From NCBI RefSeq assembly GCF_964030875.1, contig NZ_OZ034981.1, positions 210,001-242,000 of the forward strand: 32,000 nucleotides of DNA, given 5' to 3'. This document shows positions 1-18,023 of the stretch, piece after piece (the first letter of the stretch is position 1; each line of letters opens with the position of its first letter). Below the pieces are notes generated by a model. That model worked only from the letters and a program-made list of their open reading frames with translations. It made no database searches and was not told where the DNA came from. This stretch comes from Candidatus Saccharimonadota bacterium. Its GTDB lineage: Bacteria; Bacteroidota; Bacteroidia; Flavobacteriales; Blattabacteriaceae. The position numbers and the translations under genes were made by a program.

Positions 1-265
1 GATTTTTAAATAAAATTAAGTGAATTAGCCAATACTCTCATAGTGTTGAAACTTTTTTTTGCTAACACAATGTTATTAGCTTTTCCAGAATATTTGTGGT
101 AAGACCTTTGGCTTGAAAAAAAGCAGCATTTATTAATGTTCTTTACCGGGAATATTCTATTCAGCTACGGATTTTTTAAAAACTGCCTCTCATGCTGTTG
201 TCCTATATAGATATTCCTTGGGCATACTATCGCTTTTTTTTAGAAGTATTGACAGGTTTTGGTTC

Positions 266-378
266 GGGATATTTCGACAGTCTTAGTGGACTGGGATATT
301 TCGACAGTCTTAGTGGACTGGGATATTTCGACAGTCTTAGTGGACTGGGATATTTCGACAGTCTTAGTGGACTGGGAT
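266..378. repeat. Perfect tandem repeat, 27-bp unit gggatatttcgacagtcttagtggact x4 plus 5 nt
   Basis: Counted directly: units at 266, 293, 320 and 347. It is in frame (GYFDSLSGL x4) inside the N-terminal ccoN fragment. Confidence 0.97.
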
Positions 379-890
379 TTTTCATGTTGCTAGGACGTGT
401 TTTTAAGATGATAACTTATCGTTATCTAGCTTTTGACAGAGATTATAAATCATTTAAGAATTCTTTCGGTATGTTAGGTTATGGACGTTGGAGAATGCTT
501 CATACTAATACCGTTGTTTTTGCTTTTGTAGTAAATATAATTTTTACAGGCTCTTACTATTCTTTACAACGTTTATTGAAAACAAGAATGTTCAGCGATG
601 GATCAATTTTTATGGATGGCAACTTCTGATTGTACTCACCTGGATTACTTATCTACTGGGAATAAATACCAGTAAAGAATACGCTGAACACGAATGGCCA
701 ATAGACATACTAATTGCTATAGTATGGTGTATTTACTACGGAAATATTATTGGTACACTCTTAAGAAGAAGAGTACAACATCTGTCTGTTTCAATATGGT
801 TTTTCCTGGGTAGCTGTTCTCGTATTGCACATTTATTGCGATTCCTATAGCTCTTAACTCACTTAATAGCTATTCTATTTATGCCGTAGT

Positions 891-922
891 GGTCCAATGG
901 TGGTATGGTCCAATGGTGGTAT
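891..922. repeat. Perfect 16-bp tandem duplication ggtccaatggtggtat x2
   Basis: 891-906 equals 907-922. It duplicates the codons of the conserved CcoN VQWWYG motif; 16 nt is not a multiple of 3, so it shifts the frame. Confidence 0.95.
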
Positions 923-1980
923 GGGCACAATGCTGTGGCTTTTATTTTGACCACACCGATACTTGGGTTGATATCCCTAGGTAAAGCCTGTTTTCTCTTA
1001 TAAATTATCTATTATTCATTTTTGGTCACTAATTTTCGTTTATATCTGGGCAGGTCCTCATCATTTAATGTATACCTCTCTTACCGGTTGGGCACAGATG
1101 CTCAATGGTATAAAGTAAGAGAGAATCCAATCCGAAAATTTTTATCAGTGACCTGCTATGGAATGGCTACTTTCGAAGGTCCCATGCTGGCTACTAAGAC
1201 ATTAAATTCCATCGTACATTTTCCCGACTGGATAATTTCACATGTAGGAACTTTGGTATGGAACGTCTTTATGGCATTTGGAGTTATCTATTGGCTAGTT
1301 AAGCGATTATATTCTCCAACATTAGCGAATATCCATTTCTGTATGGTAACTATTGGGATAATTTTTTATGTCATTCCGCTTTATTGTGGAGCTGTTATAC
1401 AAGCTTCGATGTGGAAAGAATTCAATCCGTACGGAACACTTGTGCACAAAAATTTTCTTGATACTGTAACAGCTATAGTTCCTTTTTACAAACTTCGGTT
1501 GATAGGTGGTATACTGTATTTTACAGGAGTTGTCATAATATTTATCCGAATCGTCCGATTTATCGCAAATGAACCTGCATAAGCTGTTTCTTTAAGAGAT
1601 AATTTCAACAACATAAACTTTAAAAATCATCCCTGGATCCCTAACAAAAACCAATTAAGTTTACTATATTATCTATCATTGTAGTATCTATTGGAAGCAT
1701 AGTAGAAATCATCCCTACGTTAATAATTTAGATCTACAATATCAAGTGTTAAACCTTATAGTCCTCTAGAATTATAGGGGAGAGATCTTTATATCCGTGA
1801 AGGTTGTATCACAGACCATTCATAGATGAAGTAGTACGTTATGGTGAATATTCTAAAGCAGGTGAGTTTGTTTCTTTGGGGTTACAAACGTACAGGTCCC
1901 GATTTAGTAGATCCCAGTTCTTGGCATTTAAAACATATGTCTAACCCTAGATCTACTTATCCTGGATCTATTATGCCGAG

Positions 1981-2086
1981 ATATCCTGGGTTGATATCCT
2001 GGGTTGATATCCTGGGTTGATATCCTGGGTTGATATCCTGGGTTGATATCCTGGGTTGATATCCTGGGTTGATATCCTGGGTTGAT
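1981..2086. repeat. Perfect tandem repeat, 13-bp unit atatcctgggttg x8 plus 2 nt
   Basis: Units start at 1981, 1994, ... 2072. The first unit is the native CcoO ..PRYPWL codons, so the array is seeded in coding sequence. Confidence 0.97.
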
Positions 2087-2339
2087 TTTCCGTCAGTTAA
2101 ATACGTAATATACTCTGATCAAACTAGGTGTACCATATACTGTACACAATCGCATAAAAATATGGCTGCACAGGCAGCTAAAATAGTGAAAAATATTTCC
2201 AATGAATCTCCTGATATTAAACATAAAATTTTATATGGTCCGTAAGTAAAAATCATACTACGATGAGATATTTCGTAGCCTCTGTAGAGATAAAAATCCA
2301 ACAAATTGCTAGTTATAAATAAAAACCGTAACAAATCCA

Positions 2340-2740
2340 CTATAGGAAAATCTCCTCAAGGAAAAAAAGTTCTTTGGTAAGAAGACTGATAAAAATTGTA
2401 ATCATTTATTAACCCAAAATGAAGGTGCAGCTATTTACTGTACACGTTTAGGAATTCACCACGAAAACATTTTTATGTGCGATAGCAAATTCGTTCTGTA
2501 AGAAAATATCTTTGGAAAAGGTGCATTACGTGTTTTCTACAAAAATGCTATTGGAGCTACTGTCCGCAGCGATTATCCTAATCAGTAACGTACATGTGCA
2601 GGCAAAATCTTCTGTTCCTGAGCCAGTTTGTAACCTAAGCGATTGATTACTTATGTAGCTAAGGCTCTAAGGCTGCTCGTCAAAGAATTGTTGATTGGTA
2701 AGCTTATAAAAAACAACTATTCAAGTAAGTAGAGACCAGA
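2340..2740 (+). pseudogene. Malic enzyme (NAD(P)-binding domain) remnant
   Basis: Translations read KIVI..EGAAIYCTRLGIHHENIFMCDSK (2421-2489; compare malic enzyme GAGAA...CDSKG) and ATVRSDYPNQ* (2556-2588; compare the RSDYPNQ motif). Stops and frameshifts lie between them, and most of the gene is missing. An 8-bp duplication ctaaggct x2 sits at 2659-2674. Confidence 0.5.
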
Positions 2741-2777
2741 TATCATCGTCATTTATATTCCCATATAAATTCTATTA

Positions 2778-4601
2778 ATGATTTTTAAAAAAATACTTGA
2801 ACAAGTTACGATATTATTTTCCGGGAATTCCGGTGATGGTATACAATTCATCGGTAGACAGTTTACTAACACTTCAGCTTTTCTCGGAAATAATCTTAGT
2901 ACTTTATCAGATTTTCCTGCTGAAATCCGTGCTCCTCGTGATACCATTGCAGGTCTTTCAGGTTTTCAAATCCACTTTGGAAGTGTAGAAATAACATCTC
3001 CAGGTGATTTATATGACGTCCTAGTTGTAATGAATGCAGCAGCGTTAAAGAAGAATTTTCCATTTCTTAAAAAAGGGGGAAAAATTATAGCCAATACTAT
3101 GGGATTTACTTCAAAAAGTCTGCAATTAGCAGGTTATCCCCCAGATGTCGATCCATTGAAAGAATTATATGATTATGATGTATATCCACTTGATCTTATC
3201 GTACATAGTCATAAACTACTAAAAAATTTGAACCTCAGTAAGAAAGATAAGGAAGTGGCTAAAAATATGTTTGCATTGGGTTTTATCTATTGGCTCTATA
3301 GTCGTCCTTTAGGATATACTGAATATTGTCTTAAACAGATCTTTAAAAAGAATACTCAACTTCTACAAGCTAATTTAAATGTATTTCGGGCGGGTTATAA
3401 TTTCGGAGAAATAAGTGAAACTTTTACAGAACGTTTTATAGTAAAATCATCTAATCTGCCTTCAGGTATTTATAGAAATGTTACTGGAAACCAATCTCTA
3501 ACATTAGGATTAGCTACTGCAGCTATACAAGCTGGTCTCAATCTATTTTATGCCGGATATCCTATAACTCCTGCTTCAGATTTGCTTAATTATTTTGCCT
3601 CTTACAAAAACTTGGGGATAAAAAGTTTTCAGGCAGAAGATGAGATTTCTGCAATTACTTCAGCTATTGGAGCTTCATATGCAGGTGATTTAGGTGTAAC
3701 TGGAACTTCAGGTCCTGGAATGGCTTTAAAACAGGAAGGATTAGGTTTAGCATTTATGCTGGAATTACCTTTAGTAATTATCAATGTACAACGTGGTGGT
3801 CCATCGACCGGGTTACCTACTAAAACTGAACAATCTGATCTTCTTCAAGCGATTTATGGATGTCATGGTGAAGTCTCTATTCCTGTGTTAGCTCCTTCTT
3901 CTCCTTCACGTGCTTTTACAGTAGCTTTTTACGCTGCAAAAATTGCTATAGAACATATGACTCCAGTTATTTTACTTAGCGATGGTTATCTTGCTAATGG
4001 TTCAGAACTTTGGCGTTTTCCAAAAAGCTATAAATTGGATACTATATGTCCACCTTTTTTAAAAAATTCAAAAAACTATCGTCCTTACCAACGGTCTGAA
4101 ATGGGGGTTAGGCGTTGGGTGAAACCTGGGTTGGCAGGATATGAACACAGAATAGGTGGCCTAGAAAAAGAAGATGAAACAGGAAATATATCATATGATC
4201 CTAAAAATCATGAAAAAATGGTGAAGTTAAGACAAAAGAAGATTGATTTGATTAAAAAAAAATGGCCTAAACCAAGGATAGATTATGGTAAAAAAACTGG
4301 AAAGCTTCTTATATTGAGTTGGGGTTCTACTTCCGGAATTGTTCGTGCTGCAATAAAAATCCTTTTAGATGAAGGAAAATCAGTATCACATACCCATCTA
4401 GAATATATTTATCCACTTCCTAATGGACTAGATACTATTTTGCAAAACTTTAAAAAAGTGCTGATTCCTGAACTTAATAATGGTCAACTTATTCATATTA
4501 TTCGGGATCAATTTTTAATTGATGCTATTCCGTTTTCGAAAATCCAAGGTATTCCATTTACCATTTTTGAAATTGTTGAAAAAGTGCGAGAGATTATATA
4601 A
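2778..4601 (+). CDS. korA: 2-oxoglutarate/2-oxoacid:ferredoxin oxidoreductase alpha subunit
   Basis: Intact 607-aa ORF. The N-terminus ILFSGNSGDGIQFIGRQFTNTSAFLGNNLSTLSDFPAEIRAP and the internal GYPITPASD..AEDEISA..GTSGPGMALK are typical of KorA-type alpha subunits. Confidence 0.88.
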   Translation: MIFKKILEQVTILFSGNSGDGIQFIGRQFTNTSAFLGNNLSTLSDFPAEIRAPRDTIAGLSGFQIHFGSVEITSPGDLYDVLVVMNAAALKKNFPFLKKGGKIIANTMGFTSKSLQLAGYPPDVDPLKELYDYDVYPLDLIVHSHKLLKNLNLSKKDKEVAKNMFALGFIYWLYSRPLGYTEYCLKQIFKKNTQLLQANLNVFRAGYNFGEISETFTERFIVKSSNLPSGIYRNVTGNQSLTLGLATAAIQAGLNLFYAGYPITPASDLLNYFASYKNLGIKSFQAEDEISAITSAIGASYAGDLGVTGTSGPGMALKQEGLGLAFMLELPLVIINVQRGGPSTGLPTKTEQSDLLQAIYGCHGEVSIPVLAPSSPSRAFTVAFYAAKIAIEHMTPVILLSDGYLANGSELWRFPKSYKLDTICPPFLKNSKNYRPYQRSEMGVRRWVKPGLAGYEHRIGGLEKEDETGNISYDPKNHEKMVKLRQKKIDLIKKKWPKPRIDYGKKTGKLLILSWGSTSGIVRAAIKILLDEGKSVSHTHLEYIYPLPNGLDTILQNFKKVLIPELNNGQLIHIIRDQFLIDAIPFSKIQGIPFTIFEIVEKVREII

Positions 4602-4609
4602 GGAGGATA

Positions 4610-6238
4610 TTATTGTTTTACTTTCTTCCAGCTCTCTTTAAGTGTTACAGTTCTATTAAAAATAATTCTTTCTTTATAAGTATCTGGATCTACGCAAAAG
4701 TAGCCTAATCTTTGAAATTGAAAAATCTGACCTTTTTTTGCTTCTCTTAAAGAAGGTTCTCCATAGCCTTGAACAACTTTTAAAGAATTTGGATTGATAA
4801 AATCAAGAAAATCTCGTTCTTTATTACCATCTGGTAATGGTACAGAAAATAAACGATCATATAATCTGACCTCGACTTTTATTGAATGTTCAGACGATAC
4901 CCAATGTAACGTTCCTTTTATTTTTCGTAAACTTTCTTTGGTATTGCTACCTGAGAGACTTTTAGAATCATAAAAAGAGTGAACTTCTATAATTTGACCT
5001 TCAGAATCTTTTATCACGCTAATTCCTTTAATAATATAAGCGTTTTTAAGACGAACTTCTCCCCCAATACATAACCGAAAGAACTTTTTATACCCTACTT
5101 CCATAAAATCCTCTCTCTCAATATAGAGTATTTTTGAAAAAGGAATATTTACAGATTTTGTCGGATAATTTTCAATAACGAGTTTTATAGGATCAAGTAT
5201 AACCATTACCCGTGTGGCCGTTTTATTAAGTTGTTTGCGGATGCTAAATTCAAGTAAAGAAATGTCAACTACATTATCCCTTTTAGTAACACCTATTTTA
5301 TTACAAAATTCTCGGATAGCTTCTGGAGAATAACCACGACGACGTAACCCACTGAGAGTTGGCAAGCGAGGATCATTCCATCCTGGAACATATTTTTTTT
5401 CTATAATCCGTTGTAATTTACGTTTACTCATAATGGTATAACTAAGATTAAGTCTTGAAAATTCACATTGTCTAGGTTTTATTTTACCGTCTTCATATAT
5501 CTGATCAAGATACCAATTATATAAAGGGCGATGGTTTTCAAACTCTATTGAACAAAGTGAATGCGATATCTGTTCAATATAATCTGATTGACCATGCGTC
5601 CAATCATAAGTAGGGTAAATACACCATTTTTGACCTATACGGTGATGAGATTTTTTTAATATTCTATACATAATAGGATCACGAAGATTCATATTTGGAG
5701 AGTTCATATCAATTTTTGCACGTAATACATACTGACCCTCTTCAAATTCTCCGGCTCTCATTCGTTCTAACAACTCTATATTTTCTTTTATAGATCTTCT
5801 CCTATAAGGACTTTCTATGCCACCTTCAAAAGGTGTTTTTCTTTGTGCTAGGATGACTTCTTGAGATTGTTCATCTACATAAGCTTTTCCTTTCCATATG
5901 AGTTTTTTAGCCCATTGATAAAGTTGTTCAAAATAATCAGATGCATAACATTCTTTATCCCATTTTAAACCCAACCAAAGAATATCTTTTTTTATAGAAT
6001 TTACATAATTTTGACCTTCTTTAGTTGGATTCGTATCGTCAAACCGTAAATTGATAGACGTCCCGTATTTTCTACTTAGTTCAAAATTTAGACAAATTGC
6101 TTTAGCATGACCTATATGTAAATATCCATTAGGTTCAGGTGGAAAACGAAATCGTAAATTCTCTCTAGAAAAATATTTTTTAAGATCATTTTCAATAATT
6201 TCTTCAATAAAATGCTCAGGAACATGTTCATTCATATT
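4610..6238 (-). CDS. glnS: Glutaminyl-tRNA synthetase
   Basis: Carries the class-I HIGH motif (PEPNGYLHIGHAKA) and a KMSKS-like IMSKRKL. The start is placed at MNEHVPEHFIEEII (ATG at 6238), because the first 27 codons of the track ORF overlap the tmRNA 3' end. Confidence 0.93.
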   Translation of the reverse strand, partial: NMNEHVPEHFIEEIIENDLKKYFSRENLRFRFPPEPNGYLHIGHAKAICLNFELSRKYGTSINLRFDDTNPTKEGQNYVNSIKKDILWLGLKWDKECYASDYFEQLYQWAKKLIWKGKAYVDEQSQEVILAQRKTPFEGGIESPYRRRSIKENIELLERMRAGEFEEGQYVLRAKIDMNSPNMNLRDPIMYRILKKSHHRIGQKWCIYPTYDWTHGQSDYIEQISHSLCSIEFENHRPLYNWYLDQIYEDGKIKPRQCEFSRLNLSYTIMSKRKLQRIIEKKYVPGWNDPRLPTLSGLRRRGYSPEAIREFCNKIGVTKRDNVVDISLLEFSIRKQLNKTATRVMVILDPIKLVIENYPTKSVNIPFSKILYIEREDFMEVGYKKFFRLCIGGEVRLKNAYIIKGISVIKDSEGQIIEVHSFYDSKSLSGSNTKESLRKIKGTLHWVSSEHSIKVEVRLYDRLFSVPLPDGNKERDFLDFINPNSLKVVQGYGEPSLREAKKGQIFQFQRLGYFCVDPDTYKERIIFNRTVTLKESWKKVKQ

Positions 6239-6284
6239 GAATTTATATTTATAGTTAGAAATATAAACATGGGGATATTTATTG

Positions 6285-6648
6285 TGGAGTTGGCGGGATT
6301 CGAACCCGCGTCCATACAAGTAATTTGTAAGATTTCTACATACTTATCTCCTCTTGTAAACCTACAATAGAAGAGGAGCATTCTATTGAGGAATTATCCT
6401 TTTAGTTTTCAAAGGTTTCCTAGCTTTATTTTACGGTACCTCTTAATCATAAATTATAAAGCGGAATTTATGAGAGATATCTTGCTTCGGCAGATTATGC
6501 CGACGTGGCTTTAAATTTTTACTTAAGCAGCAAGAGCATAGTTTTCTTCGCCGGTTATATTTTGTGACGCTAGATTTTCGTGTTTACCTCACGTTACACG
6601 GTATGCTTACTTACTTATTAAGCTTGCTGTCAAAACCATTTCAACCCC
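6285..6648 (-). ncRNA. ssrA: tmRNA (SsrA), one-piece, about 364 nt
   Basis: The minus strand starts GGGGTTGAAATGGTTTTGACAGC (6648 downward). It ends GGACGCGGGTTCGAATCCCGCCAACTCCA (T-arm, acceptor, discriminator A at 6285; CCA not encoded). The acceptor pairs GGGGTTG/CAACTCC with the G3:U wobble. The tag frame ggc gaa gaa aac tat gct ctt gct gct taa encodes GEENYALAA* (6552-6523). Confidence 0.95.
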
Positions 6649-6833
6649 TTATAATATATACTACATTTACTGATGATAAGGAGGCTGGAGTGAAACGTCA
6701 TTCCACTCTTAACGAGGCAGATCAATGATCCTAACGCTTGGTGAAAGCAGGAGTAGACGTTATTACTTTGTATTGGTAACTATGACTATAAATGCTTATC
6801 CCCACAAATTACTGCTATTCTTACGGATAAAGC

Positions 6834-6859
6834 TATTGCTGCTGGTTATTGCTGCTGGT
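6834..6859. repeat. Perfect 13-bp tandem duplication tattgctgctggt x2
   Basis: 6834-6846 equals 6847-6859. It duplicates the AIAAG codons of the IMPDH-like remnant and shifts the frame. Confidence 0.93.
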
Positions 6860-6923
6860 TCTAATTGTGTTGTATGGAACTTCTTAGGCTGGGTGGGTAG
6901 CGTGCCGGTATTATATTACCAGT

Positions 6924-7053
6924 AATAAAGTCATTCATCGTCCAGCTTCAATAAAGTCATTCATCGTCCAGCTTCAATAAAGTCATTCATCGTCCAGCTT
7001 CAATAAAGTCATTCATCGTCCAGCTTCAATAAAGTCATTCATCGTCCAGCTTC
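6924..7053. repeat. Perfect tandem repeat, 26-bp unit aataaagtcattcatcgtccagcttc x5
   Basis: Units at 6924, 6950, 6976, 7002 and 7028, all identical. Confidence 0.97.
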
Positions 7054-7171
7054 TATAGTGAAATTCTATTGCTATCGCTTTTTTACGAGGGAGGAGGTAA
7101 CGCTTTCTGAATTTTTTTCAGCTCTAACTTTGTAGATACTCCAGAAGAAGTGGTCACTAGATCCATTGGTT

Positions 7172-7478
7172 ATTTGAAGTCGGTCGCTTTATCGCGTTAA
7201 TCAAATGAGGAAAGTCCGGACATCATAGAGCAACACAAATGGGTAATTCCCTTACACTGCAAGGTGAGGACTAGTGCAACAGAAAGAAAGTACAGTTTGG
7301 CTGTAGTGAAATTAGGTAAACTCTGTGCGATGAAATGCTATGTAGACCGGCGTTTAAGATCTGCTCGGTCGTAGTCGGTGGGTAGGCAGTTTGAGATAGA
7401 TGGTCACATTTATCCTAGATTAATGATAAAGGTTCCTAGGGGGATACAGAATCCGGCTTACAGGCCGACTTAAGTTAT
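7172..7478 (+). ncRNA. rnpB: RNase P RNA (bacterial type A), unusually short at about 295-305 nt
   Basis: Contains GAGGAAAGTCCGGAC (7207-7221), AGTGCAACAGAAAG, GGTAAACTC and ACAGAATCCGGCTTA (7446-7460). The closing helix pairs aagtcggtc (7177-7185) with ggccgactt (7463-7471). Only about 30 nt precede the P4 5' strand. Ends are uncertain by about 15 nt. Confidence 0.9.
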
Positions 7479-7499
7479 GTTCTTCAGCTATACAACCTG

Positions 7500-7880
7500 T
7501 TTTGGTAAAATAATTTCTTCAGATTGTATACTTATATTTGAGCTGCTTACCAAACTAAATGTCCTGTAGCTATACAGAATTCGTAGCTTTTCCATGCCAG
7601 TGATGCGTACCACTCATAAAGTCTACACCATAGTAGTGTGTAATATTAAACAGATAGGTTTTATCACGTATTCAAGGACATTAAGGGCATCACTGTTAAT
7701 CTATAGTAGCATATACGTGTTTATAACCAGCATAAAGCGCTTCAGCGCTGCCTACCAAAAGTTACTATATATTTGCTTGATAGCTACAGACAGACCTTGT
7801 ACTGATGCTACTAGGTAAACCTTAATGTGTTTAATTTAGACACGTCAGACTGTAAGCTTAGTAATAAAACAGTGCTACAG
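7500..7880 (-). pseudogene. PLP-dependent class-V aminotransferase / cysteine-desulfurase-like remnant (tentative)
   Basis: Minus-strand fragments read DALNVLEYVIKPICLILHTTMV (7691-7626) and YYGVDFMSGTHHWHGKATNSV (about 7635-7575). They resemble class-V ..le..i.pkTkLv.ithvSN.. and ..vDF..fSgHK..GP.G.G. Stops occur in every frame. Confidence 0.3.
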
Positions 7881-7904
7881 CTCCTAAGGATGTACAATGA
7901 TCTC

Positions 7905-9479
7905 TTATTTTAAATATTCCATTGGTAATTCAACTATACCATGGGGTTCTATTTTAACAATGCGAGTGCAAACCGTTTTAATTAATTCTTGATCTTTAGA
8001 AGTAATCAAAATAGTACCTTTAAAACTTTTTAAAGAATTGTTAAGCGAGGTTATAGACTCTAGATCTAAATGGTTGGTAGGTTCATAAAACATCAATACA
8101 TTAGCTTTAAGTAGCATCATTTTAGAAAACATGCAACGCATCTTCTCACCTCCTGAAAGAACATGGGTTTTTTTTAGCGTTTCATCTCCGCTGAAAAGCA
8201 TTTTTCCTAAAAATCCTCGGATATATTCCTCACAATTTTCTTCTTCCTTTTCTACATATTGTCGAAGCCAGTCAATAATATTCAGATTATTTTTAAAAAA
8301 TTCGTCGTAACTACTAGGAAGATATGCTTGTTTTGTGGTAATTCCCCATGAAAAATTTCCACTTTCAGGACGAAGTTTTCCTGCTATGGTTTTATAAAGA
8401 ATAGATGTAGCTTTGCTATTATCAGAGATCAGAGCAATTTTATCTCCACGATTTACCTTTACTGAAAGGTTTTGAAAAATAATATTCCCTTCAAAGGATT
8501 GAGAGAGATTTTTGATCTCTAATATTTTATTTCCAGCTTCACGTTCTTGTTCAAAAATTATAGCCGGATATTTTCTTGATGAAGGTTTAATTTCATTGAA
8601 ATTTAGTTTATCTAGCATTTTCTTTCGTGCAGTTGCTTGTCTAGCTTTAGCTACATTAGAACTGAATCTTTGGATAAATTCTTGTAATTCTTTACGTTTT
8701 TCTTCAGTTTTTTTATTATGTTGCATTTGTTGTTGAATAGCAAGCTGACTCGCTTGATACCAAAATGTATAATTTCCAGTAAATAACTGAATTTTTCCAA
8801 AATCCAAATCGCAAATATGAGTACATACTGAATCTAGAAAGTGACGATCATGAGAAACTACAATAACAGTATTTTCATAGTTAGACAAAAAATCTTCTAA
8901 CCAATTAATAGTATCTACATCTAGATCGTTAGTAGGTTCATCCAATATTAGAATATCAGGATGACCAAAAATAGCTTGAGCCAATAATACACGGACTTTA
9001 TCTTTCCCATTAAGATGTTTTACTTTTTTAATATGTTCTTCTTCTGTTACACCTAAGCTGGAGAGTAAATGAGCGGCATCTGATTCTGTGTTCCATCCTC
9101 CCATTTCCTCGTATAACAATCCTAATTCTCCTGCTTTAATTCCATCTTTTTCTGAAAAATTATCTTTCTTATAAAGAAAATCCATTTCCTGTTTAATGTC
9201 AGAAAGTTTTTTATTACCTCTTATCACTGTTTCTAGTACTGTGTAATTATCAAAAACGGAGTGGTCTTGTTTCAATACCGACAGACGTTTTCCAGGTTCA
9301 ATGTTAATTTTTCCTGAGGTGTAATCTTGTTCACCAGAAAGAATTTTTAAAAAAGTAGATTTTCCTGCACCATTTGCTCCTATAATTCCATAGCAATTTC
9401 CTTTAGTAAATTTAATATTTACCTCTTCAAAAAGGATTTTTTTTCCAAATTGTAAAGAAAGATTTGATACTGTAAGCAT
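7905..9479 (-). CDS. ABC-F family ATPase (YbiT-like, two ABC domains, no transmembrane domain)
   Basis: Intact 524-aa ORF. NBD1 has Walker A GANGAGKST, Walker B ILILDEPTNDLD and SHD. NBD2 has the signature LSGGEKMR, but its Walker A reads SDNSKATS, its Walker B reads LMFYEPTNHLD, and its switch reads SKD. Confidence 0.9.
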   Translation of the reverse strand: MLTVSNLSLQFGKKILFEEVNIKFTKGNCYGIIGANGAGKSTFLKILSGEQDYTSGKINIEPGKRLSVLKQDHSVFDNYTVLETVIRGNKKLSDIKQEMDFLYKKDNFSEKDGIKAGELGLLYEEMGGWNTESDAAHLLSSLGVTEEEHIKKVKHLNGKDKVRVLLAQAIFGHPDILILDEPTNDLDVDTINWLEDFLSNYENTVIVVSHDRHFLDSVCTHICDLDFGKIQLFTGNYTFWYQASQLAIQQQMQHNKKTEEKRKELQEFIQRFSSNVAKARQATARKKMLDKLNFNEIKPSSRKYPAIIFEQEREAGNKILEIKNLSQSFEGNIIFQNLSVKVNRGDKIALISDNSKATSILYKTIAGKLRPESGNFSWGITTKQAYLPSSYDEFFKNNLNIIDWLRQYVEKEEENCEEYIRGFLGKMLFSGDETLKKTHVLSGGEKMRCMFSKMMLLKANVLMFYEPTNHLDLESITSLNNSLKSFKGTILITSKDQELIKTVCTRIVKIEPHGIVELPMEYLK

Positions 9480-9510
9480 TACTAAACAAGGATTTTTTTT
9501 ATAAAAGCTG

Positions 9511-9596
9511 TTTACAAAGTGATTTACAAAGTGATTTACAAAGTGATTTACAAAGTGATTTACAAAGTGATTTACAAAGTGATTTACAAAGTGATT
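9511..9596. repeat. Perfect tandem repeat, 12-bp unit tttacaaagtga x7 plus 2 nt
   Basis: Units at 9511 through 9583. The array fills most of the 137-bp divergent spacer between the ABC-F start (9479, minus) and the smpB start (9617, plus). Confidence 0.97.
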
Positions 9597-9616
9597 GAAT
9601 CAAAATAAATTTTGTT

Positions 9617-10054
9617 ATGAAAACCAAAATTGAAAATAGAAAATCTCGTTTTGAATACGATATTTTAGATGAATATACGTCTGGAATACAGTTATTAGGA
9701 ACAGAAATAAAATCAATTAGACGGAATAATGTTTCTATTTCTGAGAGTTTCTGTAAAATGAAAAATAAAGAGCTTTACGTTATAAATATGTATATTTCAA
9801 AATACGAATGGGGAACGCATATTAATCATGATGTTAGAAGAGAGAGAAAGCTTCTCTTAAAGAGATCAGAGTTAAAAAAACTTGAACGTAAACTCAAGGA
9901 GTATAATTTAACTCTAATACCTAAAAGACTTTTTATAAACGATAAAGGACGTGCTAAGCTTAAAATTTTTTTAGCAAAAGGAAGAAAATATTATGATAAA
10001 CGCAATATTATCATGAAAAGAGAAATGGAGAGACGTAGAGATGATTTTTTTTAA
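9617..10054 (+). CDS. smpB: SsrA-binding protein SmpB
   Basis: 145 aa. NRKSRFEYDILDEYTSGIQLLGTEIKSIR and the basic C-terminal tail are typical of SmpB. Confidence 0.94.
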   Translation: MKTKIENRKSRFEYDILDEYTSGIQLLGTEIKSIRRNNVSISESFCKMKNKELYVINMYISKYEWGTHINHDVRRERKLLLKRSELKKLERKLKEYNLTLIPKRLFINDKGRAKLKIFLAKGRKYYDKRNIIMKREMERRRDDFF

Positions 10055-10065
10055 AATATTATAGA

Positions 10066-10200
10066 GGGAGATTTCATCCAGTAAAATTAAAGGGAGATTT
10101 CATCCAGTAAAATTAAAGGGAGATTTCATCCAGTAAAATTAAAGGGAGATTTCATCCAGTAAAATTAAAGGGAGATTTCATCCAGTAAAATTAAAGGGAT
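10066..10200. repeat. Perfect tandem repeat, 26-bp unit gggagatttcatccagtaaaattaaa x5 plus 5 nt
   Basis: Units at 10066, 10092, 10118, 10144 and 10170. The reverse complement encodes the tatC ..PLILLDEIS.. segment. Confidence 0.97.
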
Positions 10201-10563
10201 GGTAGCAATAAACATGCTTATTATATCTGAAGGAGTGATAGCATAATTAAAAAAGCGTGTTTTCAACAATTTTGTAGTAATTAGACCGATTTGGGTTAAA
10301 AAAAGTAGGATCTATTACTATAGAAATATAAAAATGTTTTCAGGTAAATAACTTAGACGAAAGCTCTTGCTAAATTGTATCCACAAAATAAAACTAAAGC
10401 AGACAATATAATTTCGTTCTTGTTACGAAAGTCCAGGACGTATCAAACTACAAATTTCATCAAAAATCTAAGGAAGAGCTAGGATGATTATAAAACTTCC
10501 CCATAAATAAGTATTAAATTGTCCTAAAAGTTTAGTGTTTTGTATCTGTAGATTCAGAGATCT

Positions 10564-10613
10564 AATCATTGGATTATTTTGATGGATCAAATCATTGGAT
10601 TATTTTGATGGAT
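10564..10613. repeat. Tandem duplication, period 26 bp (aatcattggattattttgatggat, 24 of 26 nt identical)
   Basis: 10564-10587 equals 10590-10613. On the minus strand it duplicates the tatC codons IHQNNPMI and introduces a stop. Confidence 0.9.
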
Positions 10614-10815
10614 AACCCGGACCATTTTATTGAATAGACGATAACTAATAAAATTAGCTGGAGCAAAACCCACAATGATGCTTAGTAAAGCTATAAAAAC
10701 AGGTTTTCGTAATTCTTCAAGATGTTCCATAAATGGCATCGTAAAATATTCCATGAGACGGTCAGTTGGGAGAATTATTTACTCCGTGGGCTTTATAATC
10801 TTGTAAAAAATGACA

Positions 10816-11084
10816 TTAAAAAGAGGAGATGAAAGCATCCTTATAAAAAATTTGTAAGTCTTCAATACCTTCACCTAATTGATCATTCCTCCTTTAAAAA
10901 CACGTGGATCAGTTTTTTAATCACTTATGTACGGCAGTATATACATAAATCTGCTGACGGCTGCTGCACGAAAAGTATCGTATGCTCCTCCTCACCCCAG
11001 GTCGGTAGAAACCGTCTGTATACACGATTAGGGTACATTACTTTTGTTTTTCCTGCTATAAACCGCTTTAGTTTTTTGTAACCC
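10816..11084 (-). pseudogene. ftsY: Signal-recognition-particle receptor FtsY, about 270-bp remnant
   Basis: Minus-strand fragments read GLQKTK (about 11084-11066), DTFRAAAV (10979-10956) and GEGIEDLQIFYKDAFISSF* (10875-10816). No P-loop GxxGxGKT remains. The DTFRAAA-to-GEGIEDL spacing is about 80 nt against roughly 500 nt in intact FtsY. The position after rpmB-rpmG-DUF4295 matches the usual Bacteroidota operon. Confidence 0.8.
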
Positions 11085-11086
11085 TC

Positions 11087-11236
11087 TCATTTCTTGTCAA
11101 AAAAATCATTTATTTTATTATCTGGAACTATTTTTTCTTCAAAAACATAAGTTCTTGATTTGATTGACTTAATCAGACGTATAACTTTTGTCATTTTTTT
11201 ATATACATTATTTTGTAACACAGTTTTTTTTGCCAT
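11087..11236 (-). CDS. Small conserved protein, DUF4295 family (49 aa)
   Basis: Hand translation: MAKKTVLQNNVYKKMTKVIRLIKSIKSRTYVFEEKIVPDNKINDFFDKK*. It starts 1 nt after the rpmG stop. It is below the 60-aa cut-off of the ORF track. The MAKK.. start, the K.K...Y.F core, and the position after rpmB-rpmG match the DUF4295 genes of Bacteroidota as I recall them. Confidence 0.75.
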   Translation of the reverse strand: MAKKTVLQNNVYKKMTKVIRLIKSIKSRTYVFEEKIVPDNKINDFFDKK

Positions 11237-11237
11237 T

Positions 11238-11420
11238 TTATTTAATTTCTTTATGAATAGTGTATTTTCTTAGAATAGAGTTATATTTTCTTAATTCTAT
11301 TCTATTAGGCGTATTTTTTTTATTTTTTGTACTAAAATAACGAGAGATCCCTTTTTTTCCACTTTTCTTATGTTCAGTACACTCCAGAATTATTTGGATT
11401 CTATTTCCTTTTTTTACCAT
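11238..11420 (-). CDS. rpmG: 50S ribosomal protein L33
   Basis: 60 aa: [21 protein letters not shown]...[34 protein letters not shown]. Confidence 0.95.
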
Positions 11421-11423
11421 TTT

Positions 11424-11660
11424 TTATTTTATTAGTCTTTTTTTCCTCGAACGTTTAAGTGCCTCTTCAATTCCTATAGTATTCACCGTTCTAATTCCAG
11501 CTGCAGATATTTTTAACAAAATCCATCTATTTTCTTTAGGAAGAAAGAATCTTTTTTTTATAATATTAATATTAAAACGACGTTTAATTTTATTATTAGC
11601 ATGAGAAACTTTGTTCCCTATTAGAACTTTTTTACCGGTTATTTTACAAATTTTTGACAT
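11424..11660 (-). CDS. rpmB: 50S ribosomal protein L28
   Basis: 78 aa: MSKICKITGKKVLIGNKVSHANNKIKRRFNINI.. Confidence 0.95.
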   Translation of the reverse strand: MSKICKITGKKVLIGNKVSHANNKIKRRFNINIIKKRFFLPKENRWILLKISAAGIRTVNTIGIEEALKRSRKKRLIK

Positions 11661-11726
11661 TTTAAATCTTTTTTTTATTTCGGATTATTTAAATAACAGC
11701 TGCATAAGCTTTTTAATGAATAAATT

Positions 11727-11823
11727 CCATTATGCAATCCATTATGCAATCCATTATGCAATCCATTATGCAATCCATTATGCAATCCATTATGCAATCC
11801 ATTATGCAATCCATTATGCAATC
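11727..11823. repeat. Perfect tandem repeat, 12-bp unit ccattatgcaat x8 plus 1 nt
   Basis: Units at 11727 through 11811. It lies 67-163 nt upstream of the rpmB start (11660, minus) and before the yidC remnant. Track ORF 11611-11826 (HYAIHYAI...) is just its translation. Confidence 0.97.
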
Positions 11824-12710
11824 TAAAAAAATAGATTATTATTTACTTATAGTGACTATAATTTCAATATTAATAGTCTTTTTTTGTTTCAATGAAATTG
11901 GGTAGAAAAATATACAGTTATCAAATAAAAAAACTATTTGATTCTCTCCCAATAAATATGGGGAAACTATTTGAAGAAGAAAATGATATGATTAGTATAA
12001 AAATATCTAATCTTGGGGTGGGGGGAATATTAGTGAGATCTTTCTCAAGAAGTATAATACTTCTAACGATAAAATATTACGTTTAGTAAAGACGAAAAGT
12101 TTCACTTTTGGTATAAATATGATAACTCTTTCTGGTTTATAGTAATGATCCCCCTAATCTGCAAGAAACTCCCTATCAATACATCTTAACTATGAAAACA
12201 ATTTTTCATAACGTAGGGGAATTATTCATTCCCGAAAGAAAAATCATATTAGGCAAATTTGTCCATTACTAGTCGAGGTCTTTGTTCTTAATAATGCTAT
12301 TTTTTTTAATTGTAAACATAAATTAATTGGTTTGGAAAATAATTATACACAAATGTGTTATTCTTATGGAAAGAATAAAAGAATAAAAAAAGAAATTGTC
12401 TAGCTAATAAACAACAATTTTGTACTAAAAATCCTTTTAAAACAACGAAAATTCAATAAAAAATACTGACATCACCATTTGATATTAAATGGTGTTCTAT
12501 GTTTTCTCCATTAGTTTATAATGAACTTAATTGTAAGGCAAAGTGGGATTTTGTTCCATTAAAGTATAATCTTCTTAAGAAGTATGGTGATAATTTTGAA
12601 GATCTTATCCCATTTGGTTGGAGTATTTTGATCAAAAACAAAGTTTAATTATTATAGTAAAACTTATATTATTCCCCATTACTTATTGGCAATGTAAATT
12701 CATTGCTATA

Positions 12711-12785
12711 ATGAAAATTATACGTTATGATATAGAAGAACTGAATGAAAATTATACGTTATGATATAGAAGAACTGAATGAAAA
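12711..12785. repeat. Perfect 34-bp tandem duplication atgaaaattatacgttatgatatagaagaactga x2 plus 7 nt
   Basis: 12711-12744 equals 12745-12778, inside the yidC remnant. Confidence 0.95.
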
Positions 12786-12968
12786 ACTTAAATCTGCAGA
12801 TAAGCAACAAGCTACTATAGAATTTTATAAAAAAATCGTAATAAATCCAATGTCTGGATTTTTTATGCACTGTTTCAATTTTTTTAAAAAGATTATTAAT
12901 CTTCGAGGAAAATCATTTCTTTGGGCTTATGATTTAACTTATTACGATTCAGTATTTCATCTTCCTAT

Positions 12969-12998
12969 CCCTATTTATCCCTATTTATCCCTATTTAT
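12969..12998. repeat. Perfect tandem repeat, 10-bp unit ccctatttat x3
   Basis: Units at 12969, 12979 and 12989, inside the yidC remnant (IPIYPYLSLF region). Confidence 0.93.
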
Positions 12999-13181
12999 GG
13001 AAATCATGTTAGTTTATTTTATATTGTATACAAAGTTTAGTCATATAAATAATTACGTTCAAGTAAATAATAATAATATTTCATGCCCATAATAATGCTT
13101 TTATTTAATTATGCTTCCGTACTTTCATTATATTATATAAAATCTTTTGAATATTATGTTTATATATAAGGGAATAATATT

Positions 13182-15017
13182 ATGAATAAAAACAAATATT
13201 TTTTTTTTCTCTCAGGTTTCCTGATTATTTTGGGAATATTTCTTTTTCAATATTTGGTCTTTAAAAGACAACAGATTTCTCCAGATTTTTTTTTTAAAAT
13301 CCTTTCTGAAAAAAGAGTTCAGAAAATAATTATAACAAATCACTCTAAAGCCATCATATGGGTTTATAAAAAAAATATAAAAAATAAAAAATATCTTTTA
13401 TATACAGATTTTGATCATTATGAATTAACTATAAATAATTTTCCTTTTTTTTCTAAAAAGATTGAAGAATATAAATATCTCTATAAATTAAATCTCATTC
13501 TTCTTTTAAATAATCAAAAAGAATCTAATTTTAGCAAAACTGTCATTGAATCCGTATTCTTTTTTTTCCTCTTTGTAATATTCTGGGGATTCATATTATC
13601 TCGTATAAACGTAGGTTCTGGAAAACATATATTTAATATTGGAAAGTCTAAAGCTAAACTTTTTGACGAAAACGATAATGTTAAAATTACTTTCCAAGAC
13701 GTAGCTGGGTTGGAAGGAGCAAAGGAAGAAATCCAAGAAATTGTTGACTTTCTAAAAAATCCTAATAAATATACTAATTTAGGAGGGAAAATTCCTAAAG
13801 GTGCGCTTTTAGTTGGACCTCCAGGAACAGGGAAAACTCTTTTAGCTAAAGCTGTTGCCGGAGAAGCTCAAGTCCCGTTCTTTTCTCTTTCTGGATCTGA
13901 TTTCGTAGAAATGTTTGTTGGAGTAGGTGCTTCTCGCGTTAGAGATCTTTTTAAACAAGCTAAGGAAAAATCTCCTTCCATTATTTTTATTGATGAAATC
14001 GATGCGATAGGACGTTCTAGGGTAAAAAATAATATTAATGGAGCTAATGACGAACGTGAAAATACCCTTAATCAGCTACTTACAGAAATGGATGGTTTTG
14101 ATACCAATACTAATGTTATAGTGATGTCTGCCACCAATCGTTCAGAGATTCTTGATCAGGCACTTTTACGTCCTGGACGTTTTGATCGTACTCTTTTTAT
14201 AGATCTTCCAGAACTAAATGAAAGAAAAGAAATTTTTTTAGTACATATTAAAAAATTAAAAATTGCAAAAGATATAGATATTGAATTTTTATCTCGTCAA
14301 ACTTCTGGGTTTAGTGGTGCTGATATAGCGAATATATGTAATGAATCTGCTATTATAGCAGCTCGTCAAGAAAAATCAAAAATAGAATATCAAGATTTTT
14401 TAAGTGCTATAGATAGAATTATTGGAGGATTTGAAAAGAAAAATAAAGTAATAAAGTTAGCAGAAAAAGAAAGAATAGCTTATCATGAAGCAGGTCATGC
14501 TGCTATTAGTTGGTTAATTGAACATGCGGCTCCTCTTGTAAAAGTTACTATTGTTCCTAGGGGAAAATCTTTAGGAGCCGCTTGGTATCTTCCAGAAGAA
14601 CGTCAATTAACTACTTTTGAACAGATGCAAGATGAAATTTGTGCTTTATTAGGAGGACGGGCTGCTGAACAAGTAATATTTAAAACTATTTCTACAGGTG
14701 CTTTAAACGATTTAGAACGTGTTACTAAACAAGCACAATCTATGGTAACAATTTTTGGATTAAATAAACGTATTGGTAATATTTCTTATTATGACTCTAC
14801 AGTTAAAAACGAATCTGCTAAACCCTATAGTGAAAATACTGCCAGAATTATTGATGAAGAAATTTCTAAAATTATTGAAGAACAATATCAACGTGCATAT
14901 AAATTATTAGCTAATAATCGTGTAAAACTTAAAAAATTAGCTAAGAAATTACTTGATAAAGAAGTTATCTTTAAAGAAGATCTTGAGGAAATTTTTGGAA
15001 ACAGACCTTTTCCATAA
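13182..15017 (+). CDS. ftsH: ATP-dependent zinc metalloprotease FtsH
   Basis: 611 aa, with two N-terminal hydrophobic segments, AAA+ Walker [19 protein letters not shown], Walker [13 protein letters not shown], and the zinc site HEAGHA. Confidence 0.96.
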
Positions 15018-15023
15018 AATATT

Positions 15024-16925
15024 TTATTTAACTTCTTCAAAATCGACATCTTGAACATTTTTACTCTGAGTATTAGATGCGGAAGTATTTTTACTCTGAG
15101 TATTAGATGCGGAAGTATTTTTTTGAGCAGTATACAATTCTTGTGAAATACTGGTCCAAATATCTGTTAAAATTTTTGTAGTCCTGTCTATTTCATAGAA
15201 ATTTTTTGAAGCCCGAGCATTTTTAAGCTGTTGTAAAATATCTTCTATTTTTTTCTTATTCTCTTTTGATAATTTGTTTTCGGATTCTTTAATCTGTTTT
15301 TCAGTTTGAAAAATTAGTCCATCCGTAGCATTTAACTTATCAATTTCTTCTTTATATTTTCTGTCTTTATCAGCATTTTCTTGGGCTTCTCGTTTCATTT
15401 TTTCAATTTCTTCTTGACTTAATCCTGAAGAAGCTTCAATACGAATTGATTGTTCTCTATTAGTACCTTTATCTTTAGCTGAAACGTTTAAAATACCATT
15501 GGCATCAATATCAAAAGTTACTTCTATTTGAGGTCTTCCTCTAGGAGCTGGTGGTATATTAATTAAATCGAACCGGCCAATTTCTTTATTATCTTTGAAA
15601 AGAGATCGTTCACCTTGTCCTACTCGAATAGTTACAGCTGGTTGATTGTCAGAAGCAGTAGAAAATGTTTCTGATTTTTTTGTTGGTATAGTTGTATTAG
15701 ATTCTATTAATTTAGTAAATATTCCACCTAAAGTTTCTATACCTAAAGAAAGTGGTGTGACATCCAGGAGAAGCACATCTTTAATATCTCCAACAAGAAC
15801 TCCACCTTGAATAGCTGCTCCTATAGCTACAACTTCGTCAGGATTAACACCTTTTGAAGGTTTTTTTCCAAATAATTTTTCTACTTCAGCTTGAATTTTT
15901 GGAATTCGTGTAGAACCACCTACTAAAATTACTTCATCAATATCTTTAATTGCATCTAATCCAGCAGATTCTAATGCTTTTTTGCAAGGTTCCATGGAAC
16001 GACGAATAAGACCATCTTCAAGTTGTTCAAATTGAGCTCTAGTAATAGTTTGTACTAAATGTTTTGGTCCAGAAGAAGTAGCAGTAATATAAGGTAAATT
16101 AATTTCAGTTTTTAGTCCTGAGGAAAGTTCGATTTTTGCTTTTTCAGCTGCTTCTTTTAAACGTTGATGAGCCATAGGATCTTGTCGAAGATCAATACCT
16201 TCTTGAGATTGGAAACTCTTTACCAAGAAATTAATAAGAATATCGTCAAAATCATCTCCTCCTAAATTGGTATCTCCATTTGTAGAAAGTACTTCAAATA
16301 CGCCATCACCTAATTCTAGAATAGAAATATCGAAAGTCCCTCCTCCTAAATCATATACTGCGATTTTTTTATCATGTTTCTTTTTATCTAATCCATAAGC
16401 TAATGCTGCTGCAGTAGGTTCATTAATTATGCGTTCTACTTTCAATCCTGCAATTTCTCCAGATTCTTTAGTAGCTTGTCTTTGTGAATCATTAAAATAT
16501 GCAGGGACAGTGATAACTGCACGGGTAACTTTCTGTCCAAGATAATCTTCAGCAGTTTTCTTCATTTTTTGTAAAATCATTGCTGAAATTTCTTGTGGAG
16601 TATAAATTTTTTTATCTATATCGACTCTTGGAGTATTATTAGGACCTTGTATAACCTTATATGGCACCCGATTTATTTCAGTAGAAAGATCCGAAAATGT
16701 TGTCCCCATAAACCGTTTTATTGAAAAAATAGTTTTTTTAGAATTAGTAACAGCTTGTCTTTTAGCTGGATCTCCGATTTTTATTTCTCCTTCTTCAACA
16801 AAGGCTACCATAGATGGAGTAGTTCTTTTTCCTTCAGAATTAGGAATTACTATAGGATCATTCCCTTCCATTACTGCAACACAGGAATTGGTTGTTCCTA
16901 AATCTATACCAATAATTTTATTCAT
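15024..16925 (-). CDS. dnaK: Molecular chaperone DnaK (Hsp70)
   Basis: 633 aa: [36 protein letters not shown]-terminus DVDFEEVK. Carries an in-frame 10-aa duplication near the C-terminus. Confidence 0.97.
15057..15122. repeat. Perfect 30-bp tandem duplication (period 30, about 2.2 copies)
   Basis: 15061-15090 equals 15091-15120, with matching flanks. It is in frame in dnaK and gives [20 protein letters not shown]. Confidence 0.95.
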
Positions 16926-17129
16926 TTTTAAAATTTTTAAAAAGAGAAAACAAGCATTGTGCCATTAATTTTTTTTTATATGATTGTGTGTTTATTTTAT
17001 AATGTCATTATCAATGACTTTATGTCAACTTTAGAAGATTTTTTTGTAATAATTTTGTAAATTAAAACTAAAATGCTATATATACTCATGCTTTTCTTTG
17101 TAAACAATGATTTTATTTTTTAATATACT

Positions 17130-17576: not shown

Positions 17577-17582
17577 TTTGAT

Positions 17583-17969: not shown

Positions 17970-18023
17970 TTTTCTCGAGAATATTCCGATATATTTATAT
18001 TATTTTAAATAAATAAATGTAGA

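Follow-up and report, generated by a model that had tools for sequence, protein, structure and literature searches.

The stretch of DNA analyzed here, termed the window, comprises 32,000 nucleotides of contig NZ_OZ034981.1 (NCBI RefSeq assembly GCF_964030875.1, positions 210,001 to 242,000 of the forward strand), and the subject of this work is a series of near-perfect tandem arrays located in its first 15 kb. The window carries the reduced gene set of a flavobacterial insect symbiont: remnants of ccoNO and fixP, the alpha subunit of a 2-oxoacid:acceptor oxidoreductase, glnS, the genes for tmRNA and RNase P RNA, an ABC-F ATPase (abcF), smpB, a tatC remnant, rpmB, rpmG, a DUF4295 gene, a yidC remnant, ftsH, dnaK and a long ribosomal-protein block. 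An exact-protein look-up found the ABC-F and oxidoreductase proteins unchanged in CP170564.1 (288,943 bp; "Candidatus Walczuchella" ICPU), the genome of the symbiont of Icerya purchasi, the cottony cushion scale, described by Choi et al. 2025 (PMC12188211). Proteins of the window are also filed under RefSeq WP_ accessions named 'Walczuchella endosymbiont of ...'. The window is thus a second, independent and near-identical assembly of essentially the same symbiont as CP170564.1. The origin of CP170564.1, set at the glnS start codon, falls at window position 6235/6236, so that the window crosses it. A longer glnS open reading frame with a TTG start (4610-6319, minus strand) is spurious, since it overlaps the tmRNA gene at 6282-6648; the annotated protein has 541 aa and starts at 6235. 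A search of a plasmid collection gave no meaningful match to the window. Among the matches listed by a scan of genome contigs with the ABC-F protein there were only free-living Flavobacteriia, with identities up to 66%, and exact look-ups of DnaK, EF-G and the TTG-start form of GlnS gave no record.

Syntenic loci were compared in the symbionts of Icerya seychellarum (ICSE), Crypticerya (CRMU), Drosicha (DRCO) and Llaveia (LLAX) and in a lineage from the ENA record ERZ15609813. ICSE and CRMU are 97.8-98.3% identical to the window and DRCO and LLAX about 93%, and the ENA lineage (NODE_1023) is about 91-94% identical to the other Walczuchella. The loci align collinearly across the compared genomes, in agreement with the full synteny reported for Walczuchella (PMC12188211). 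Three regions of the window are pseudogene remnants:

192-2386, plus strand: ccoNO and fixP remnants, host to the arrays at 266, 890 and 1980; the LLAX CcoNO protein aligns at 52% identity and only short open reading frames are left.
10168-10799, minus strand: tatC remnant, in two frames with 57-63% identity to LLAX TatC.
11816-13136, plus strand: yidC remnant, split over three frames.

The arrays are the following, with unit length and copy number:

266-383: 27 bp x 4.4, 98% match, in the 5' part of the ccoN pseudogene; common to ICSE and CRMU.
890-924: 16 bp x 2.2, in the ccoN pseudogene, encoding VQWWYG; terminal microhomology TGG.
1980-2086: 13 bp x 8.2, in the ccoO part of the ccoNO pseudogene; microhomology GAT.
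2659-2674: 8 bp x 2.0.
6834-6860: 13 bp x 2.1, in the non-coding spacer that separates the tmRNA gene from that of RNase P RNA; ICSE and CRMU have one copy.
6924-7057: 26 bp x 5.2, in the same spacer; single copy in ICSE and CRMU.
9511-9596: 12 bp x 7.2, intergenic, between the divergently oriented abcF (minus strand, start 9479) and smpB (plus strand, start 9617).
10065-10199: 26 bp x 5.2, at the 3' end of the tatC pseudogene, minus strand, encoding LILLDEIS.
10559-10613: 26 bp x 2.1, 96% match, within the tatC pseudogene; ICSE, CRMU, DRCO and LLAX have one copy each.
11726-11823: 12 bp x 8.2, at the yidC start; the unit holds the ancestral start codon (TCCATT-ATG-CAA).
12710-12785: 34 bp x 2.2, in the yidC pseudogene; 8-bp microhomology AATGAAAA.
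12966-12998: 10 bp x 3.3, in the yidC pseudogene; microhomology TAT; single copy in all relatives.
15057-15122, minus strand: 30 bp x 2.2, an in-frame duplication in intact dnaK.

These thirteen arrays had been listed by an earlier reading made from the letters alone (the sequence-only reading), and Tandem Repeats Finder (TRF), run over the whole window, recovered every one of them with the same periods and copy numbers and with starts within 1-5 bases of those given. Twelve arrays pass a filter of period at least 8, score at least 50 and at least 95% match, as compared with none in 100 dinucleotide-preserving shuffles of the window. The thirteenth, the 8-bp duplication at 2659, scores 32. A shuffled window should contain about 1.7 rows of this kind, and ftsH holds comparable 8-bp x 2 rows at 14247 and 14442; the duplication is at chance level by score and carries no weight, and it is old, being common to ICPU, ICSE and CRMU. 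Within each array the copies stand head-to-tail without spacer (0% indels and 96-100% match by TRF). Unit sizes range from 8 to 34 bp with no excess of 2-7-bp repeats in the window, periods of 6-7 bp appearing only as weak A/T-rich rows, and each unit is unique to its own locus, with no recurrence elsewhere in 39 kb except for one chance 10-mer. An imported or dispersed repeat or mobile element family (repetitive extragenic palindromes, miniature inverted-repeat transposable elements, insertion sequences) was rejected on this confinement of the units to their own loci and on the lack of any transposase-like frame among the open reading frames of the window. A clustered regularly interspaced short palindromic repeat (CRISPR) array was likewise rejected, as the copies abut directly, the period equals the unit length and there are no unique spacers, and iterons were rejected on anatomy. 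The gene contexts that had been named for the arrays were borne out for ccoN/ccoO, tatC (on the minus strand), yidC and the C-terminal linker of dnaK. This was not so for an 'IMPDH-like' remnant at 6834: the open reading frame at 6725-6925 has no Pfam hit, and tblastn returns only a weak match to a 71-aa LLAX frame. The description of the arrays as mostly seeded inside coding sequence has to be relaxed for two of them, which are intergenic (9511, and 11726 at the yidC start).

Comparison with the orthologous loci supports the earlier proposal of a local amplification of native sequence from a single-copy ancestral state. For ten of the twelve arrays the unit, which is unique to its locus, is present as a single copy in the relatives. 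In addition to the cases given in the list, this applies to the unit at 890 in ICSE, CRMU, DRCO and LLAX, to that at 1980 in DRCO and LLAX (it is shortened by small deletions in ICSE and CRMU), to that at 10065 in all relatives, to that at 11726 in ICSE, CRMU and LLAX (residue 1 of LLAX YidC maps to 11816), to that at 12710 in ICSE, DRCO and LLAX, and to the dnaK unit in ICSE. The unit at 9511 has one copy in CRMU, DRCO and LLAX and two diverged copies in ICSE, and the array stretches the abcF-smpB spacer from about 59 bp to 137 bp. The duplication in dnaK doubles 10 residues in the variable linker ahead of the conserved C-terminal DVDFEEVK, DnaK measuring 633 aa in the window versus 623 aa in ICSE. 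Further arrays are found in ICPU just upstream of the window (coordinates of the fetched locus):

168-222: 12 bp x 4.6, in frame, inside ileS.
1285-1430: 24 bp x 6.1, between ileS and tsaD, in two blocks of variant units.
6781-6911: 15 bp x 8.7, from the last codons of hflX, stop codon included.

Two arrays predate the split of ICPU, ICSE and CRMU, namely the 27-bp array at 266 and the 15-bp array at the hflX 3' end. The latter has 8.7, 11.7 and 4.7 perfect copies in ICPU, ICSE and CRMU respectively, and the former 4.4 copies in each. The 27-bp array, located at window 266-383, at 7729-7847 of a relative's locus and at 7404-7521 in CRMU, carries substitutions that differ by species yet are present in all full copies within a species, other variants being confined to the edge copies. 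The array has thus been homogenised separately in each of the three species, a case of concerted evolution. Both halves of the earlier statement that the arrays are recent or being homogenised therefore hold, ten arrays being species-specific and the 27-bp array being uniform within each of three species. The other genomes have arrays of their own: 10 bp x 13.2, 16 bp x 9 and 11 bp x 8.1 in the tatC remnant of ICSE, 25 bp x 3.4 and 27 bp x 4.1 in CRMU, and perfect arrays of 15 bp x 4.3, 15 bp x 4.1, 20 bp x 2.8 and 8 bp x 5.2 in the ENA lineage. Some seeds have been reused with another period, one site having units of 24 bp in ICPU and of 12 bp in ICSE. Array positions are not conserved between species that are 98% identical.

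The ends of the arrays point to the way in which they arose. The terminal partial unit, which represents the microhomology between the unit start and the sequence following the array, measures 5, 3, 3, 1, 0, 2, 5, 2, 8, 3 and 6 bp in the window arrays. Over 35 arrays of four lineages its median is 3 bp and its mean 5.7 bp, against a null mean of 0.84 bp for random duplications of equal sizes; in 5000 simulations a mean as high as that observed never occurred. Single-copy orthologues already show the seed repeats: TGGTC stands twice at 16-bp spacing in LLAX at the site of the 890 array, AGGTAT twice at 26-bp spacing in CRMU tatC at that of the 10065 array, and ATTTTT twice at 30-bp spacing in ICSE dnaK. 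In yidC, AATGAAAA at 34-bp spacing stands in the single-copy DRCO and LLAX sequences, AATGAAA(A) being already present at both ends of the single unit in ICSE, DRCO and LLAX. Pre-existing short direct repeats at the ends are the signature of nascent-strand misalignment, and the slippage-type process put forward by the sequence-only reading fits these termini. The mechanism that we propose starts, as these sites show, with a duplication between two direct repeats of 2-8 bp that stood at a distance of 10-34 bp in ordinary sequence beforehand. Once two identical units are present, further misalignment gains or loses whole units fast, which keeps the copies identical by concerted evolution and lets copy number change far faster than bases are replaced; this second step is largely established by the comparisons. 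Slippage driven by hairpins or cruciforms was rejected as a general feature, since ten of the units, each folded as single-stranded DNA in 2-4 tandem copies, had z-scores from -3.2 to +2.0 with no consistent signal.

Concerted evolution and single-unit gains and losses are also expected if RecA-type homologous recombination, by unequal crossing-over or gene conversion, makes and homogenises the arrays. The units of 10-34 bp are however shorter than the homology length that RecA of E. coli uses efficiently, and seeds of 2-8 bp indicate misalignment rather than a homology search. The genome paper of LLAX moreover lists no genes for DNA recombination (PMC3971599), and the 2025 study gives proteins of recombination and repair as absent (PMC12188211). 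Altogether, RecA-type recombination is exceedingly improbable as the source of the arrays. LLAX is also reported without mutL, dnaB and primase (PMC3971599), and in Walczuchella as a whole dnaB and dnaG are reported missing from all seven genomes and mutS kept in three of the seven (PMC12188211); mutL and the recombination genes, too, are described as absent throughout (PMC3971599, PMC12188211). In E. coli, tandem-repeat rearrangement is RecA-independent and has been explained by template switching at the fork (PMC8378479). We conclude that the arrays owe both their formation and their homogenisation to RecA-independent slippage or template switching; RecA-independent sister-strand exchange is possible as well and forms part of this explanation. 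It is to be noted that the ABC-F ATPase of the window (7905-9479, minus strand) is kept in every sampled Walczuchella genome and scores as YbiT-type (PRK15064, 600 bits) and not as Uup (303 bits versus a cut-off of 900). E. coli Uup is an ABC-F protein reported to suppress template-switching products (PMC7145654), and the absence of a Uup-type ABC-F, as assigned from these scores, may be relevant.

The distribution of the arrays follows the functional state of the DNA. Functional sequence (intact coding sequence and RNA genes) accounts for 76% of the window, and 11 of the 12 arrays lie in the non-functional 24% (binomial P = 1.5e-6). That no arrays occur in the ribosomal block at 17-32 kb, as had been stated, is true, TRF giving only imperfect, low-scoring, A/T-rich rows there, albeit uninformative, because this block consists almost wholly of functional genes. 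Across three species, three scored arrays are found in intact coding sequence, and all are in frame: 30 bp in dnaK, as the sequence-only reading had seen, and additionally 12 bp in ileS and 15 bp in ICSE ftsH. The non-functional DNA of four lineages contains 34 distinct arrays, of which 11 (32%) have a unit that is a multiple of 3, the neutral third; the observation that eight of ten units in dead genes are not multiples of 3, made earlier for the window, equals the neutral two thirds and is uninformative. Selection purges arrays from functional sequence, leaving them to accumulate in pseudogenes and spacers, and arrays survive in intact genes only if in frame and in a tolerant segment. The 5' end of ftsH seems to be one such place, ICSE carrying there an in-frame 15 bp x 3 (fetched locus 6424-6468) and the LLAX protein (fetched locus 4238-6172) beginning MNQNNKPNKPNKPNKPNKPNKPNKPNKLNN, an in-frame 9-bp (NKP)n repeat, so that the FtsH N-terminus seems repeatedly tolerant of repeat insertion. 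DRCO ftsH (fetched locus 4523-6346) has three in-frame stops and no gene call and is apparently a pseudogene, the gene being intact in ICPU, ICSE, CRMU and LLAX. In the window, a 67-aa open reading frame at 19884-20087 with only a partial match to Peptidase_M24 (methionine aminopeptidase) is a map remnant, and it sits in about 0.8 kb of non-coding DNA without an array.

An alternative view is that the arrays are the primary lesions, tandem expansion driving pseudogenisation. The reading-frame change in tatC coincides with the 26-bp duplication at 10559 (tblastn frames -1 to -3 at 10575-10590), the yidC start codon is repeated by the 12-bp array at 11726, the length of most units is not divisible by 3, and in-frame arrays have already entered ileS and dnaK. 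However, tatC, yidC and ccoNO, which are intact in LLAX, are multi-lesion pseudogenes in ICSE, CRMU, DRCO and the ENA lineage, where they contain numerous stop codons and changes of frame, and none of these genomes has the ICPU arrays. The share of multiples of 3 in dead DNA is the neutral one, and in the sampled regions there is no gene whose sole lesion here is an array and whose orthologue in a sister species is intact. Because sister species without the arrays carry the same dead genes, these genes died before most arrays arose. Pseudogenisation driven by the arrays is thus unlikely, and the arrays are mostly passengers in already dead DNA and not inactivating hits.

A function for the arrays, as phase-variable contingency loci, as regulatory repeats (iterons or promoter multimers) or as selected protein repeats, could be argued from the position of the 9511 array between two divergent intact genes, from the resemblance of its unit to a promoter box, from the 4.4 copies that the 27-bp array has in three species and from the translation of the dnaK and ileS arrays. 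The reverse complement of the 9511 unit (TCACTTTGTAAA) is one base off TAnnTTTG, which we take to be the consensus of the Bacteroidetes -7 promoter box; the single copy in LLAX has TAACTTTG, and the first copy of the array keeps the native distance to the abcF start. By this resemblance, the array may multiply a candidate promoter element between abcF and smpB. In opposition to a general function, the units are all different and taken from whatever local sequence was present, their positions are unconserved at 98% identity, 11 of 12 lie in dead or spacer DNA, folding revealed no consistent structure, and a host-restricted symbiont has no obvious use for phase variation. Contingency loci in particular were rejected on units of 8-34 bp instead of 1-7 nt, on the location of the 11 arrays and on the lack of conserved loci between species. 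Altogether we regard a functional origin as very unlikely.

The window and CP170564.1 are independent assemblies, and their differences were mapped. Over window 1-19,465 there is no substitution and there are exactly four gaps, each equal to one whole repeat unit:

Array 1980, 13 bp: 8.2 copies in the window, 7.2 in CP170564.1.
Array 6924, 26 bp: 5.2 copies in the window, 4.2 in CP170564.1.
Array 10065, 26 bp: 5.2 copies in the window, 6.2 in CP170564.1.
Array 11726, 12 bp: 8.2 copies in the window, 7.2 in CP170564.1.

The differences affect four of the six arrays with at least 4 copies and none of the low-copy arrays. Arrays or copy numbers made by the assembler or by polishing would be another explanation, and several facts lend themselves to it: SPAdes and Pilon were used to construct the public genomes from Illumina data, and Choi et al. 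mention that coverage is uneven where the sequence is repetitive (PMC12188211); contigs in Logan are interrupted at arrays; the two assemblies disagree by one unit at these four arrays; and in CRMU a run of N lies inside a 28-bp array. Every array is nevertheless present in both assemblies at the same position and with an identical unit, and nine of the thirteen also have equal copy numbers, so that they do not stem from an error of one assembly. Of the four arrays that differ, three measure only 86-108 bp in the Illumina record and could be spanned by single reads if the runs were of 150 bp, the differences run both ways (+1, +1, -1, +1), the array-poor DRCO genome comes from the same pipeline, and an artefact would not yield species-specific homogenised variants. 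We therefore hold an assembly origin of the arrays to be highly improbable. Their copy number is either truly hypervariable or imprecisely assembled, and real variation, between populations or within hosts, is more likely because the three short arrays and the two directions of change favour it. In CRMU (CP170566.1, fetched locus about 8111-8233) the N-run separates two blocks of the one 28-bp array, which was left unclosed by short-read assembly and whose copy number is probably larger.

Array density differs strongly between lineages. In the syntenic region we counted 3.8 arrays per 10 kb in ICPU, 4.9 in ICSE, 3.7 in CRMU, 2.9 in the ENA lineage and 0.46 in each of DRCO and LLAX, the density of the Icerya/Crypticerya clade being about eight times that of the Drosicha and Llaveia symbionts, and this split into array-rich and array-poor genomes agrees with the published phylogeny, in which they fall into two subclades. 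The contrast cannot be put down to method or to opportunity, because DRCO shares the sequencing and assembly pipeline and the same pseudogenes and has an apparently dead ftsH in addition. Tandem indels of period at least 8 account for 27-76% of indel bases between the Icerya/Crypticerya genomes and for 0-7% between the more diverged DRCO and LLAX. As a last step of the mechanism, a lineage-specific change in replication or repair would have raised the rate of array birth in the Icerya/Crypticerya clade and at least one lineage besides.

Taken together, these results favour, with a probability of roughly 0.8, the interpretation that RecA-independent replication slippage or template switching, in a lineage with crippled replication and repair, gave rise to the arrays as neutral by-products on which selection acts as a filter. 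Several points weigh against it. Some terminal remainders of at least 10 bp may be decayed units and not microhomology, and the constant 4.4 copies of the 27-bp array in three species are odd for a freely drifting array. The comparison involves assemblies, not reads, so that the four copy-number differences could be assembly errors or majority calls from a mixed population, and the Illumina record of CRMU has its gap inside an array. The sampled sequence amounts to 14-39 kb per genome, not to whole genomes. Non-tandem indels outnumber tandem ones by event count, and the 'dominant' mutational mode that the sequence-only reading had proposed is accordingly true for bases in one genome pair only. 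Finally, mutL, dnaB, dnaG and the recombination genes, whose loss is documented, are lacking in the array-poor genomes as well. Since both subclades share the known losses, these cannot be the whole cause of the clade contrast; nor can the loss of mismatch-repair or recombination functions, which had been offered for the arrays as such, as mutL, dnaB, primase and recombination genes are also missing from array-poor LLAX (PMC3971599).

A tentative extension of slippage in this crippled background, which we consider possible though somewhat less likely than not, is that the Icerya/Crypticerya branch entered a distinct, heritable 'minisatellite mutator' state through a lineage-specific loss. Against a background already without DnaB, DnaG, MutL and RecA, the candidate losses may include mutS, a helicase, topA or an exonuclease, or there may have been a change in the fused Pol III alpha/epsilon. 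If this holds, microhomology-seeded duplication of 10-34 bp would be a leading source of new DNA in these genomes, offsetting deletion bias and helping to keep an ancient genome large and pseudogene-rich, with arrays homogenised without a recombinase, and the arrays would offer a natural readout of a replisome relying on host or foreign helicase and primase.

Whatever the status of this extension, the arrays add a mutational mechanism to the report of unusual pseudogene richness in Walczuchella, tandem arrays supplying a third or more of the indel bases between species of the Icerya/Crypticerya clade. They also let one follow, in nature, how arrays are born, expand and evolve in concert where RecA-type recombination is reported to be lacking. 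The contrast between rich and poor collinear genomes makes it testable which replication or repair loss destabilises medium-unit repeats. As the arrays vary while their flanks are identical, they could serve to type populations of Icerya purchasi, a globally invasive pest. A caution also follows, namely that short-read symbiont assemblies, and pseudogene calls ending in arrays, carry uncertain copy numbers, as the gap in CRMU exemplifies.

Variable number tandem repeat (VNTR) or minisatellite loci as used in multiple-locus VNTR analysis (MLVA), such as the mycobacterial interspersed repetitive unit (MIRU) VNTRs of Mycobacterium or the VNTRs of Wolbachia, number a few per megabase, are often intergenic and have diverged copies. 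The Walczuchella arrays resemble them in having units of tens of bases and copy numbers that vary between close strains while the flanks are identical, and the assemblies compared here display the features of this class: head-to-tail copies, a local single-copy origin, prior microhomology and copy-number differences between close genomes. They differ from classical VNTR loci in their density of about 4 per 10 kb, in their perfect copies and in their occurrence in a genome of 289 kb. The template switching studied in E. coli by the Lovett laboratory (PMC8378479) shares the gain and loss of whole units without RecA and the seeding by short homology. That work used engineered 101-bp repeats and measured deletions, whereas natural repeats of 10-34 bp are involved here, birth and expansion are seen, and the symbiont is not open to genetic experiments. 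Slipped-strand repeats of organelles (chloroplast, PMC5438981) are similar in arising in a small, weakly repaired or non-recombining genome by in-situ duplication from short seeds in spacers, and differ in belonging to another genetic system without a pseudogene context. In Karelsulcia, also a flavobacterial insect symbiont, a 6-bp expansion in atpB (PMC13345377) is again the gain of a repeat unit as a short-term change, albeit at a single in-frame hexamer locus and not in a dense population of longer-unit arrays.

Tandem repeats go unmentioned in both Walczuchella genome papers (PMC3971599, PMC12188211), and a full-text literature search gave only an unrelated match. We thus found no report of such repeat instability for Walczuchella. 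Among insect symbionts there is one further known case, which is the closest precedent: Portiera aleyrodidarum of Bemisia tabaci, in which Sloan and Moran 2013 (PMC3673631) described the proliferation of short tandem repeats. Both are tiny obligate insect-symbiont genomes that have lost replication and repair genes, in which one lineage shows a burst of tandem repeats in non-coding DNA next to a repeat-poor sister and indels lie in a repeat context. The lineage-specific excess over the sister that characterises Portiera is found here also (3.7-4.9 versus 0.46 per 10 kb), and its spike of 7-bp microsatellites and its rearrangements are not. Portiera is distinguished by this spike at 7-bp units, by the expanded intergenic regions in which it lies and by its coincidence with rearrangements and with the loss of dnaQ, mutL and other genes, and Walczuchella by units of 8-34 bp, by arrays that each amplify another local sequence, many of them in recognisable pseudogenes, and by genomes that have stayed collinear.

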